This document shows positions 13,629 through 39,352 of a DNA stretch of 64,000 nucleotides, piece after piece. The notes below the pieces were generated by a model, which made no database searches, was not told the DNA's origin, and saw only the letters and a program-made list of their open reading frames with translations. The DNA lies in the NCBI GenBank assembly GCA_049366815.1, contig JBMNCO010000087.1, positions 10,317-74,316 on the forward strand, in the 5' to 3' direction. This DNA is from Desulfatiglandales bacterium (GTDB lineage Bacteria > Desulfobacterota > DSM-4660 > Desulfatiglandales > HGW-15). The translations under genes and the position numbers were made by a program. The first letter of the stretch is position 1; each line of letters opens with the position of its first letter.

Positions 13629-14618
13629 ATGAGCGCGATAGGAATACTCGGAACTGGTTCCTATGTCCCCCCTAAAGTCCTCAGCAACTTTGATCTTCAG
13701 GAGATGGGGCTTGATACCACGGATGAATGGATCACCCAACGGACGGGGGTCCGGGAAAGGAGGATGGCCGATCCGGATGTAACGACATCGGACCTGGCCC
13801 TGGAGGCCTCTCTGAGGGCCCTTGATATGGCGGGTTTGACTGCCAAGGATCTGGATCTGGTCATTGTTGGAACGATCACGCCCGACACCTGCTGTCCGTC
13901 GGCCGCAAACTGGCTCCAGGCAAAGCTGGAGGCCACCCGGGCCGCTACCTTTGATGTAACGGCCGCCTGTTCCGGTTTTATCTTTGCGATCAACGTCGCA
14001 ACCCAGTATCTCCTCACAGGGGCCTGCAAACATGTGCTGGTCGTGGGGTCCGAGGTGATGACCCGCACCCTTGACTGGAAGGACAGAAAGACCTGTATCC
14101 TGTGGGGTGACGGGGCCGGCGCCGCTGTCCTGACAGGAGGCGGGCAGGGCCACGAGATCCTGTCCTCCCACATACACACGGACGGATTCAACGGTCGAGA
14201 CCTGCTTTTACCGGGTGGTGGGTCGAAGACCACGCCCATCAGCCATGAAAGCGTGGACAAGGGTCTTCACACGCTCAATATGATCGAGGCCAATGCCAGC
14301 TTCAGGGTGGCGGTGCGTCACTTCGTTGAATCCATCAGAGAAGCGGCCGAGTTTAATCATGTCGCTATTGAGGACATCGACTGGTTTATCCCGCACCAGG
14401 CCAATTTTCGCATGTTCATCTCCATGGCCAAGAATCTCAATGTCCCCATAGAACGCTTTTATGTCACGCTCCACAAATACGGAAATATCTCCTCTGCATC
14501 ATGTGCCATTGCGCTCGACGAGGCCGTTCGGGACGGAAGCATCCACGAGGGGGACGTGATCTGCATGCCCGTTTTCGGCGGGGGATTGTCATGGGGTAGC
14601 GCCCTGATCAGGTGGTAG
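13629..14618 (+). CDS. fabH: Beta-ketoacyl-ACP synthase III
   Basis: Catalytic Cys in AACSGF, FIPHQANFRM and YGNISSAS motifs; 329 aa. Confidence 0.93.
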   Translation: MSAIGILGTGSYVPPKVLSNFDLQEMGLDTTDEWITQRTGVRERRMADPDVTTSDLALEASLRALDMAGLTAKDLDLVIVGTITPDTCCPSAANWLQAKLEATRAATFDVTAACSGFIFAINVATQYLLTGACKHVLVVGSEVMTRTLDWKDRKTCILWGDGAGAAVLTGGGQGHEILSSHIHTDGFNGRDLLLPGGGSKTTPISHESVDKGLHTLNMIEANASFRVAVRHFVESIREAAEFNHVAIEDIDWFIPHQANFRMFISMAKNLNVPIERFYVTLHKYGNISSASCAIALDEAVRDGSIHEGDVICMPVFGGGLSWGSALIRW

Positions 14619-14765
14619 AAGGGCTTGAGAAGAGAAAAAAGCGCCCCGTCATGACTGGAACCAAAGCGGTTTCATGCTCGGGGTCGTGCGCCCCTCGGTC
14701 TTTTCCCACAAGTTTGCTTGCCCGTCAGGCCTCCTGTTTTTGACCATAGTCTTTTAATCTTTTGT

Positions 14766-14898
14766 CGTAACACTTTAGCCCTTTGAAAAATTCGAAAGGA
14801 AATCATGCACCCTTTCTTACGTTCCGAAGCTCCCGCTGATCACTTCAGAAAGGGAGCATGATTTTCACACAGTTATTGGAAAGGGCTGAATTCATACC
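14766..14898 (+). mobile_element. MITE-like element, family 1, copy A (133 bp)
   Basis: Flanked by identical TTTTGT at 14760-14765 and 14899-14904. Imperfect terminal inverted repeats: CGTAACACTTTAGCCCTTT versus the reverse complement of the right end, GGTATGAATTCAGCCCTTT. Internal stem of about 20 bp. No ORF. Confidence 0.8.
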
Positions 14899-14921
14899 TT
14901 TTGTCTAATAGAGGAGGATGA

Positions 14922-15374
14922 ATGATGGCTGATAAATCATCGGCCCCCCTTATTAGAACAATGACACACAAAGATCTCGAACGCATTTTAGAGATCGACA
15001 AAAAGGTGCTCGGAAAATCACGACCTGAATACTGGGAATTAAAACTGATGATGGTCGAGCGGCGATCACCCGTGGTATCCCTGGTAGCCGAACTGGATGG
15101 AAAGATCGTCGGGTTTATCATCGGCGATGCGAGCGGTTGGAAATACGGGGCGCCCGACAATATTGGCTGGATCGATACGATCGGCGTGGATCCCGATTAT
15201 CAACGAAGGGGTATCGCCAAGATGCTCATGACGGAGATGGTTAACGACCTGAAAAAGTCAGGGGTCGATACCATATACACCTTTGTCAACTGGCGCGATT
15301 GGGACCTGCTGAAGTTTTTTGACGCCAACGGATTCCAGAGGGGTTCCATGATGAACCTGGAACTGAAGTCCTGA
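14922..15374 (+). CDS. GNAT-family N-acetyltransferase
   Basis: Acetyl-CoA binding motif QRRGIAKMLM. GGAGG RBS upstream. Confidence 0.85.
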   Translation: MMADKSSAPLIRTMTHKDLERILEIDKKVLGKSRPEYWELKLMMVERRSPVVSLVAELDGKIVGFIIGDASGWKYGAPDNIGWIDTIGVDPDYQRRGIAKMLMTEMVNDLKKSGVDTIYTFVNWRDWDLLKFFDANGFQRGSMMNLELKS

Positions 15375-24348: not shown

Positions 24349-24850
24349 CACCGCCCGGGGGCCGGGAGGCATCCTGCAGTGCCGTTTCGACCCCAATCAA
24401 ACCAGAGAGGAAACGAAAGGCAGAGTCTCATAAGAGACCCTGCCTTTATAGGGACTTCCCAGATGCCGTTCACTCTCTGGTCAATGTCTTGTAACCAAAA
24501 ACGATTTAGAAAAGACACGCCGATAATGAGGGTTTCGCGAGCACCCGAGAAGAATCTCTGATTATTCAAAAGGAGCCATTTCCCGCGCCTCGTGCAGGGC
24601 GGATATCTGAATAGCGTTCCCCCTATCACTCCGTGCTTTTTGAGGTCATGGAGCGATACCTCGTAGCCCCGGCTTCGTGCCAAGACAAAGGTCAGAGTCA
24701 GGGGCATCATGTGGAAATATGGTGCGACAATTCCAAGGCCTGTGTCCATAAGGCGTCAAATTTATTTCTCTGGGTGATTCCCCCATGGTGTGGGCGGTTT
24801 CCCCCGGGAAAGAATAAGGGCCGTCGGCCTGAAACAGGGATGACGACGTC

Positions 24851-24920
24851 CGGGAGCTTCGGAACGTAAGAAAGGGTGCATGATTTCCTTTCGAATTTTT
24901 CAAAGGGCTAAAATGTTACT
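24851..24920 (-). mobile_element. MITE-like family 1, copy B (left half only, 70 bp)
   Basis: 68/70 identical to the left half of copy A. Homology stops exactly at the CTCCCG site where copy C carries its nested insertion. Confidence 0.7.
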
Positions 24921-24940: not shown

Positions 24941-25294
24941 ATGAAGGCGCTCACTGTTATGCTCATTGTTTCCGTATCCGTGATGAATGTGGCCCTCAAT
25001 CTCTGCCTCAAAAAGACGGCCGGGCTGGTGGCAGGGGGGTTTCGGGGGGCTGTCATGTCCTGGAGCTTCACGGGATGTTTCGTTATCGGTCTTATCTCCT
25101 TTGGCAGCCTTTTTGCTCTCTATTCAACGGGGATCACCCTTTCCAGGGGAATCCTGATGATGGGAGCGATTTCCATCCTGGGAGGCAGCCTCTACGGCGT
25201 GGTCGTTTATGGTGAAAGGCTTCATACGAGCGAATGGATCATCTTTGCGCTCCTGACGCTTCTGCTTGCCTACCGGTGGTTTTTAAAATCTTGA
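24941..25294 (+). CDS. Small 4-TM membrane protein (DMT superfamily, EamA/ArnE-like)
   Basis: Four predicted hydrophobic helices in 117 aa. GAGGAGGG RBS. Confidence 0.55.
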   Translation: MKALTVMLIVSVSVMNVALNLCLKKTAGLVAGGFRGAVMSWSFTGCFVIGLISFGSLFALYSTGITLSRGILMMGAISILGGSLYGVVVYGERLHTSEWIIFALLTLLLAYRWFLKS

Positions 25295-25308: not shown

Positions 25309-26409
25309 ATGAACGTAATCGGCAACTGGTTCAGACGGCATCTCTCAGACCCCCAGGTCGTTATACTCGGTGTTCTCCTGATCACCTGTTCTGTAGGACT
25401 CTTCATTTTGGGAGAAATGCTCGCCCCTGTTCTGGCCAGCGCCGTTATCGCGTACCTTCTGGAGGGACTGGTCAAATTTCTTGAGCGGCGGTGCAAGGTT
25501 CCACGGCTTTTGGCCGTGATTCTGGTTCTCCTGATCTTTACGGCATTCCTCCTCTTTTTGCTCCTCGGCCTGTTCCCCCTCCTCTGGAGGCAAGTGAGAC
25601 AATTGATTCATGAACTGCCGGCCATGATATCCTGGGCGCAACAGGAATTGATGCTTCTGCCTCAACGCTTTCCAGGGTTTGTTTCAGAACAGCAGGTGAT
25701 TGAAATAAGTAACGCATTGCGTTCGGAGTTGACATCCCTCGGGCAGCAGATTTTGTCTTTTTCCGTGGCTTCCATGCGCAGTCTTATCGCTATTCTGGTC
25801 TATATATTTCTCATGCCGCTTGTGGTCTTTTTCTTTCTCAAGGACAAACACCGCATTGTGGAATGGGTTTCCGGTTTTCTGCCGGAAGAGCGGGGCATGG
25901 CCGCCGAAGTCTGGCATGAGGCGAACCAGCAAGTGGGAAACTATGTGCGAGGAAAGTGTTGGGAGATTCTTATCGTGTGGTCTGCCAGTTTTGTGACCTT
26001 CAAACTCCTGGATCTGCAATATGCCATACTGGTGAGCCTCTTTGTCGGGTTGTCGGTCCTTATCCCGTATTTCGGGGCGGTCTTCATGGCTTTGCCCGTG
26101 GCTTCCATCGCCTTTTTCCAATGGGGGTGGGGTCCTCAGTTTGCCTATATGGTCGGGGCTTACATAATCATTCAGATTTTGGACGGAAACGTCCTTGTCG
26201 CACTTCTTTTCTCCGAGGCCGTCAACCTCCACCCCGTGGCCATTATCGTTGCGATCCTGGTATTCGGCGGCATGCTGGGCTTCTGGGGCGTATTTTTCGC
26301 CATACCTTTAGCCACATTGGTTCAGGCGATCATCAAGGCCTGGTCGAGAAACCGCAAAAAGAGGAAGGAGGAGTTGGATGCACTCAATCCTCAGGGGCAG
26401 GCGGTTTGA
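25309..26409 (+). CDS. AI-2E family transporter (PerM/YhhT-like permease)
   Basis: Multi-TM protein with an AI-2E-type architecture. Start placed at MNVIGNWFRRHL. Confidence 0.85.
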   Translation: MNVIGNWFRRHLSDPQVVILGVLLITCSVGLFILGEMLAPVLASAVIAYLLEGLVKFLERRCKVPRLLAVILVLLIFTAFLLFLLLGLFPLLWRQVRQLIHELPAMISWAQQELMLLPQRFPGFVSEQQVIEISNALRSELTSLGQQILSFSVASMRSLIAILVYIFLMPLVVFFFLKDKHRIVEWVSGFLPEERGMAAEVWHEANQQVGNYVRGKCWEILIVWSASFVTFKLLDLQYAILVSLFVGLSVLIPYFGAVFMALPVASIAFFQWGWGPQFAYMVGAYIIIQILDGNVLVALLFSEAVNLHPVAIIVAILVFGGMLGFWGVFFAIPLATLVQAIIKAWSRNRKKRKEELDALNPQGQAV

Positions 26410-26420
26410 GAAAAAGAAAT

Positions 26421-26509
26421 CGTATGAGTTTAGCCGTTGGAAAAAGCCCGGCGGTTTGGTCCGTGGACCCTACTCAATGGGATAATTTTCGAAAACCTGA
26501 AGTGTTGCA
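26421..26509 (+). mobile_element. MITE-like element, 89-bp subfamily, copy D
   Basis: Flanked by AGAAAT at 26415-26420 and 26510-26515. Termini CGTATGAGTTTAGCC...GTGTTGCA match family-1 termini. About 72 percent identical to copy E. Confidence 0.75.
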
Positions 26510-26530
26510 AGAAATCAATGGGGCGGCCTG

Positions 26531-33178: not shown

Positions 33179-33197
33179 GCCCCCCAGAAAGATTTTT

Positions 33198-33286
33198 CGT
33201 ATGAGTTTAGCCGTCTGAAAGAGCCCAGCAATTTCGGCCATGGCCCCTCCGTGATGGTGTAATTTATAAGAGCCTAAAGTGTTACG
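33198..33286 (+). mobile_element. MITE-like element, 89-bp subfamily, copy E
   Basis: Flanked by ATTTTT at 33192-33197 and 33287-33292. Right end reverse-complemented (CGTAACACTTTAGG) matches the left end of copy A at 13/14 positions. Confidence 0.75.
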
Positions 33287-33315
33287 ATTTTTCCTGCTTT
33301 CAAGGAGACTTAATT

Positions 33316-39032: not shown

Positions 39033-39062
39033 GGAATCGGCGGGTGAGGACATTGAAAATTT

Positions 39063-39309
39063 TGTAATACTTTAGCCCTTTGAAAAATTCGAAAGGAAAT
39101 CATGCACCCTTTCTTACGTTCCGAAGCTCCCGGGCTGGTCTTTTTTGCGATTTATCCATGGGGGAGTTCTGCCCCCTCCCCATTCTCGACTTGGTCGAGC
39201 TGGGGTTTCCCCCACGCATAAATCGCAAAAAGACGGCGTCCTCCCGCTGGTCACTTCAGAAAGGCAGCATGATTTCCACACAGTTATTGGAAAGGGCTAA
39301 ATTCATACA
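39063..39309 (+). mobile_element. MITE-like family 1, copy C (133-bp element carrying a 108-bp nested element)
   Basis: Flanked by AAATTT at 39057-39062 and 39310-39315. 126/133 identical to copy A once the nested insertion and one CTCCCG copy are removed. Confidence 0.8.
39133..39240 (+). mobile_element. Nested second-family MITE-like element (108 bp) inside copy C
   Basis: Flanked by CTCCCG (39127-39132 and 39241-39246), which is single-copy at the same position in copy A. About 23-bp terminal inverted repeats ending in a perfect TTTTTGCGATTTAT / ATAAATCGCAAAAA. Internal hairpin CTCGAC-ttg-GTCGAG. Confidence 0.7.
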
Positions 39310-39352
39310 AAATTTCGTGTTTCAGAATAATGAACATAAGGAGAGGGCAAAA

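Follow-up and report, generated by a model that had tools for sequence, protein, structure and literature searches.

Bacterial MITEs such as MITEPsy1/2 of P. syringae and the IS982-derived MITE of Cardinium are small, non-coding, intergenic and multi-copy, with inverted, IS-like ends and target duplications (PMC3189936, PMC9769881). The family described here has all of these features in common with them but combines constant ends with a number of hairpin interiors that are unrelated to each other. Our literature search returned no MITE tied to the IS66 family of insertion sequences, the family to which the present ends point.

The inverted repeats of IS66 start with GTAAGCG and are accompanied by 8-bp direct repeats (PMC11946415). 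The canonical element carries three ORFs (tnpA-tnpB-tnpC). The MITE shares the GTAA start and the 8-bp duplications with these canonical elements, while its ends are nearer to the ISBst12-group consensus GTAACT…CAG. ISDge4, a member of the ISBst12 group, has the ends GTGACTACTCAGCA / GTAACTGCTCAGCA and an 8-bp repeat, and the chemistry of IS66-family transposition has been described as poorly characterised (PMC12898284).

In this study, we analysed a stretch of 64,000 nucleotides from a Desulfatiglandales bacterium, referred to as the window. The element from which the analysis started, copy A, is located 149 nt past the stop codon of fabH and 24 nt ahead of the ATG (14922) of a GNAT acetyltransferase gene.

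Copy A and its relatives in the window

The original prediction had placed copy A between two TTTTGT hexamers (14760-14765 and 14899-14904) and had given its ends as CGTAAC / GGTATG. Both hexamers were seen in the sequence. However, the identical flanks reach one base further on each side, which lengthens the duplication to 8 bp and makes the element 2 bp shorter than first described. The same 8 bp were obtained when the flanks of all copies were read in one register, and the ends are corrected to GTAAC / GTATG, both boundaries having been misplaced by a single base. Copy A thus spans 131 bp (14767-14897), with GTAAC…CATAC ends and the 8-bp duplication CTTTTGTC on both sides. The imperfect inverted ends and the interior stem of about 20 bp were both seen as first quoted. 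Six-frame translation of copy A gave short frames only, with stops in each of the six, as expected from the lack of coding capacity assigned to it. The features of the window are as follows.

14759-14766, no strand: left target-site duplication of copy A, CTTTTGTC, identical to 14898-14905
14767-14897, plus strand: copy A, A-type MITE of 131 bp with left end (L) GTAACACTTTAGCC and right end (R, reverse complement) GTATGAATTCAGCC; a long imperfect palindrome
14898-14905, no strand: right target-site duplication of copy A, CTTTTGTC
24851-24919, minus strand: half copy, L half of an A-type element, matching positions 1-69 of copy A at 98.6% identity; it ends exactly at the central CTCCCG
26422-26508, minus strand: S-type copy of 87 bp; duplication AAGAAATC at 26414-26421 and 26509-26516 (8/8)
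33199-33285, minus strand: S-type copy of 87 bp with a different interior; duplication GATTTTTC (plus strand) at 33191-33198 and 33286-33293 (8/8)
39064-39308, plus strand: A-type copy of 245 bp with a second element inside; flanks AAAATTTT (39056-39063) and AAAATTTC (39309-39316) (7/8)
39133-39240, plus strand: palindromic element of 108 bp in the exact centre of the 245-bp A-type copy, with inverted ends GGCTGGTCTTTTTTGCGATTTAT and (reverse complement) GACGCCGTCTTTTTGCGATTTAT

All the related copies that had been predicted were found again, at 39063-39309, 26421-26509 and 33198-33286 for those with both ends and at 24851-24919 for the half copy. Their relationship had to be revised in two cases. 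The 87-bp S-type copies share with copy A only the ends, over about 14-24 nt, and not the interior. The 39063-39309 copy is indeed related to copy A, but it is actually copy A plus a second element of 108 bp, as judged by the repeat finder: 39064-39132 corresponds to copy A positions 1-69 with 99% identity, and 39241-39308 to positions 64-131 with 94%. By the same tool, the two S-type copies are 72% identical to each other (26409-26506 compared to 33186-33283).

The S-type copy at 26422-26508 sits between convergent AI-2E transporter and SLT genes, the one at 33199-33285 between an epimerase stop (33178) and the ATG of a UDP-glucose dehydrogenase gene (33316), and the half copy lies 21 nt upstream of an ATG at 24941. 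Measured distances between the window copies and a flanking gene start or stop were 12-44 nt in all cases, in agreement with the limit of about 45 nt given initially, and both orientations relative to the flanking genes were observed. Between fabH and the insertion point of copy A, there is a pair of hairpins with T-runs that resemble terminators (14680-14730). No promoter-like site was found in 14500-15000.

Across the ten good copies retrieved in the window and elsewhere (see below), the L consensus is GTAACACTTTAGCCTTTTGAAA and the R consensus GTATGAnTTTAGCC. The two ends, GTAACACTTTAGCC(n)TTTGAAA on the L side and GTATGARTTTAGCC on the R side, are conserved and asymmetric. Over their 14 terminal nucleotides, GTAACACTTTAGCC and GTATGAATTTAGCC are complementary at 11/14 positions. 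Both ends are conserved in all copies, and L starts with GTAAC in most of them. The ends differ at positions 4-7 (ACAC vs TGAA), a difference kept in the intact copies. This maintained asymmetry argues for recognition of each end by a protein and not for selection on RNA pairing. The same two 14-nt ends enclose unrelated interiors in elements of 87, 94, 110, 124 and 131 bp, which come from the window, two Desulfobacteraceae MAGs and metagenome contigs. Overall, family members measure 81-131 bp (245 bp for the copy that holds the nested insert) and have no coding capacity.

Target duplications and distribution of the family

A two-terminus pattern was scanned over 185,579 species genomes and pointed to two Desulfobacteraceae MAG contigs; the same pattern over JGI metagenomes gave four contigs. 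The copies retained outside the window are the following.

L001: three copies of 94 bp, duplications 8/8, 7/8 and 7/8
L002: one copy, duplication 6/8
L005 (OMKS01032161.1): one copy of 87 bp, 91% identical to the 33.2k copy of the window, duplication 7/8
L006: one copy of 124 bp, duplication 8/8

With these six copies, carried by four Desulfobacteraceae or metagenome contigs, and the four of the window, ten copies with both ends were available. Their 8-bp flanks agree at 8/8 positions in five copies, at 7/8 in four and at 6/8 in one. In the window background, octamers at the spacings of the copies agreed at 8/8 for 0-9e-5 of positions and at 7/8 or better for 5-8e-4; as a general background for 8/8 agreement, about 3-9e-5 per position can be taken. 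Moreover, the 14-nt terminal motifs were found within the window only at MITE copies, and the two-terminus pattern had no match in 100 shuffles of the window. A chance repeat is therefore excluded, because of both the absence of shuffle matches and the low octamer background. The duplicated octamers are A/T-rich in a window of 54% G+C, and the insertions occurred in short intergenic spacers.

Other matches to the pattern were rejected. An 81-nt match at L003 12614-12694, identical to L010 10951-11031 (the contig is also listed as viral in IMG/VR), has no duplication, and neither has the match in L004; both were treated as chance or decayed matches, the one in L003 being probably a chance match. 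BLAST of copy A and an S-type copy against the plasmid collection gave nothing meaningful, and viral contigs, scanned twice with single termini, had no match.

At L005 1-172, two family members are arranged head to tail with one shared octamer. The first, starting with GTAACACTTTAGTT, is cut off by the contig start after 77 nt, and a palindromic partner for it is lacking. This truncated member may represent the left end of an element that is longer or autonomous.

We then considered related strains and species at the orthologous loci. A Logan contig (L007), 99.4% identical to the window over 12,135 bp, carries both S-type copies and the half copy. Since it shares the three copies that it covers, those insertions predate the split and no current activity is shown by them. 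More distant relatives gave a different picture. In L008 (UGDH 83% identical), the spacers are other ones, and those corresponding to 33.2k and 39.0k hold no element; its moeA-HTH spacer measures 68 bp, compared to about 70 bp in the window after subtraction of the element and one octamer. In L037 (FabH 85% identical), the gene order fabH-GNAT-dsbD is the same, with a spacer of 323 bp that includes a sigma-70-like promoter and no element; a convincing alignment to the window begins only at the right-hand octamer and continues into the GNAT gene. In L011 (87% identical), the GNAT gene and the element are both absent (L011 1377-1478 compared to window 14922-15374). Between fabH and dsbD, the GNAT acetyltransferase gene is thus present in the window and in L037 and absent in L011.

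In these relatives, at 83-87% protein identity, the element is absent; their intergenic DNA has diverged so far that it could not be aligned across the insertion point to give an empty site exact to the base. The absence at orthologous sites indicates that the element is not ancient conserved spacer sequence. All six copies outside the window are flanked by duplications of 8/8 to 6/8. The initial proposal of real transposition rather than chance is borne out by the duplications of the copies in other genomes, together with the relatives that have no element at orthologous sites. The family is therefore confirmed as genuine MITE-like, non-coding DNA spread by real transposition.

A different MITE-like element was met downstream of fabH in three contigs (L033 5094-5283). 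It is 190 bp long, has the ends GAGACCTTTGAAAAA and a 5-bp duplication, GCAAA. It is cleanly absent from a fourth contig with an identical FabH, where a single GCAAA remains (L036, about 1913), giving a filled/empty pair in an 84% relative. One end of this 190-bp element shares CCTTTGAAAAA with a subterminal block of copy A.

Terminal sequences and the IS66 family

The 8-bp duplication and the GTAA-type ends point to the IS66 family, and within it to the ISBst12 group. One element measured for comparison is the IS66-like element of G. kaustophilus pHTA426 (NC_006509: 14107-15741), which is 1635 bp long, encodes one transposase of 485 aa and has the 8-bp duplication GACGAGTT on both sides. Its ends are GTAACTATTCAGCC / GTATCTATTCAGCC; in transposase orientation, these correspond to IRL GTAACTATTCAGCCC and IRR GTATCTATTCAGCCC. 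The MITE L end GTAACACTTTAGCCC agrees with IRL at 11/14 positions and the copy A R end GTATGAATTCAGCCC with IRR at 12/14, and the GTAAC / GTAT asymmetry is common to the MITE ends and the pHTA426 element. In shuffles, matches with at most 3 mismatches to either IS end occurred at about 3 per 128,000 positions (~2-3e-5 per position). As both ends match independently at such a rate, chance agreement is very unlikely.

Single-ORF homologues in G. thermoleovorans, B. thuringiensis, Acaryochloris and Bradyrhizobium have ends of the form GTAAC/GTTAC…CAG(C/G). Their 8-bp duplications are perfect in three of the four, and 5/8 in B. thuringiensis. An abundant environmental relative of the ISBst12 group has the ends GTAACTACTCAGGCT, with CGATATTC on both sides of one cleanly assembled copy. 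Taken together, GTAAC/GTTAC…CAG is common to all six ISBst12-group elements examined (6/6), and duplications of 8/8 were measured for the references pHTA426, L013, L016, L018 and L020. Homologues of the ISBst12-group query carry PF03050 (DDE_Tnp_IS66), and one of them is named ISBst12 by its source. In the environmental element (L019-L032), the transposase stop lies 4 nt from the right end, which places the right terminal repeat inside the coding sequence. Many metagenome contigs with this element join different flanks on its two sides, probably as a result of chimeric assembly.

The MITE has in common with the pHTA426 element and ISDge4 the 8-bp duplication and terminal repeats of the type GTAAC…(T/C)AG(C/G). 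It differs from the ISBst12 group by the absence of a transposase gene and by its size (81-245 bp vs 1.5-1.7 kb). Positions 6-8 of its ends also differ consistently (ACT / GAA vs TAT / TAC), and an extra conserved block, TTTGAAA, is present at positions 16-22. Finally, the hosts are not the same: the MITE is found in Desulfatiglandales / Desulfobacteraceae, whereas the ISBst12-group comparisons come from Bacillota, Deinococcus or cyanobacteria.

No IS66-type transposase was detected by tblastn with seven ISBst12-group transposases in the window or in L001-L011, in agreement with the original prediction, which had placed no transposase in the window. An autonomous element with the exact ends of the MITE was likewise not found in the window or in the fetched loci. 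A profile search with the seven transposases gave mostly unnamed environmental proteins; the two that were looked up have the ends GTAACTACTCAGGCT and were rejected as partner. The original prediction had left the autonomous partner unnamed. None was found here, but its family level (IS66 / ISBst12) is now indicated. From the similarity of the ends and the length of the duplication, the parent is likely to be a member of the IS66 family with a single ORF, from the ISBst12 group.

Several IS families produce 8-bp duplications, although the ends of the MITE probably set it apart from the others. The MITE might have been moved by one of these other families (ISL3, IS256, IS1595, IS6 or three-ORF IS66), its likeness to ISBst12 ends being coincidental. 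The missing partner would agree with this, as would an end identity to the pHTA426 ends of 11-12 of 14 that is not exact. Nevertheless, this origin seems unlikely, as the two MITE ends match those of pHTA426 independently and include the rare GTAAC / GTAT asymmetry. In addition, GTAAC/GTTAC…CAG recurs in every ISBst12-group element examined, while the canonical IS66 start GTAAGCG fits worse (PMC11946415).

We therefore retain the ISBst12 group as the candidate source of the transposase and propose the following mechanism as a probable one on the basis of the terminal sequences. The 81-131-bp non-coding segments would carry only the two IS terminal recognition sequences and would be moved in trans by an ISBst12-type transposase encoded elsewhere. 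This DDE transposase, encoded elsewhere in the genome, would bind both ends and join them to cuts staggered by 8 bp in A/T-rich intergenic DNA. Repair of the gaps would then yield the 8-bp direct repeats. We infer that such a transposase mobilises the family and that this genome encodes it.

Hairpin interiors and the nested element

Folded as RNA, copy A (14767-14897) reaches -44.6 kcal/mol, compared to -24.5±3.5 for shuffles (z -5.84). A large excess of folding over shuffles is thus seen in copy A and in several relatives (z -5.8, -6.4 and -3.1); the S-type copies fold like shuffles (z -0.7 to -1.3). If copy A is transcribed, a strong hairpin would stand in the 5' leader of the GNAT gene 24 nt downstream; an effect on this gene is speculative.

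The strong folds of copy A and several relatives, and the location of all copies less than 45 nt from gene ends, could also be expected of a conserved structured RNA or a regulatory hairpin of the flanking genes (terminator, attenuator or sRNA) that is not mobile DNA. This explanation, already raised with the original prediction, appears very improbable. Rfam gave 0 matches at gathering over the window, and in 14000-40000 no match at E<=1 fell on a copy. The S-type copies show no excess of folding over shuffles, the interiors are unrelated between subfamilies and both orientations occur. Moreover, such an RNA leaves the exact 8-bp duplications unexplained, and the element is absent from orthologous spacers.

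REP-type elements are short palindromes of 20-40 nt and generally have no target duplication. Dispersal of a REP/BIME-type repeat by a RAYT (Y1) transposase, like a chance repeat, is the least probable of the readings considered in spite of the palindromic, intergenic and multi-copy character of the family, since the elements measure 81-245 bp with 8-bp duplications and chance is excluded by the shuffles and the octamer background. Integron attC sites were rejected as well, since the ends deviate from RYYYAAC / GTTRRRY and housekeeping genes surround the dispersed copies.

In the 245-bp A-type copy, the nested 108-bp element is bounded by CTCCCG on both sides (39127-39132 and 39241-39246), while copy A has a single CTCCCG (14830-14835). 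Its arms of 24 nt are 92% identical, and it folds at -51.4 kcal/mol (z -5.45). No second copy of it was found in the window or in any locus examined. Either it is a second MITE whose insertion duplicated 6 bp, or the 245-bp state is ancestral and a deletion between the CTCCCG repeats produced copy A. The 9-mer adjoining the half copy (reverse complement GACGTCGTC) matches the other end of the nested element at 8/9 positions. The 100 bp beyond the half copy (24751-24850) start with GGCGTC and end with GACGTC. Homology of this segment to the nested element was rejected, as the score of 28, compared to 20±3.4 in shuffles, is not significant.

The R-side interior of the S-type (GCCGTCTGAAAGAGCCCAGCAAT, window 33199-33285) resembles the L-side interior of the L001-type (GCCTTGTGAAAGCCGGGCAAT, L001 7340-7433). 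Possibly, the core has been inverted with respect to the asymmetric ends between the two types. One could imagine that the family goes beyond a decayed IS, that its asymmetric ends form a portable 'frame' in which unrelated hairpin cores were captured or exchanged several times (five interiors), and that the second palindrome targets the CTCCCG apex in a structure-directed or site-specific insertion of one MITE into another. Targeting of the apex is proposed because the insert at 39.1k lies at CTCCCG and the half copy at 24.9k breaks off at this hexamer too, beside the 9-mer that agrees with the other end of the insert at 8/9. We regard this scenario as doubtful.

Taken together, these results describe a genuine MITE family that belongs to a common type of mobile DNA in bacteria. 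The claim that it is new was upheld: neither Rfam nor the literature gave a match, and a literature search for the terminal sequences or for MITEs in Desulfobacter-type bacteria returned nothing relevant. The understanding of transposition is unchanged by this family. Short intergenic repeats at several places in this genome are accounted for by it, as are, probably, assembly breaks in related MAGs. It also flags sites where a strong hairpin now stands 12-44 nt from gene ends, such as the one 24 nt upstream of the GNAT gene. Finally, it adds to the sulfate-reducer-related Thermodesulfobacteriota a MITE family with a testable assignment to a transposase family (IS66 / ISBst12 group).
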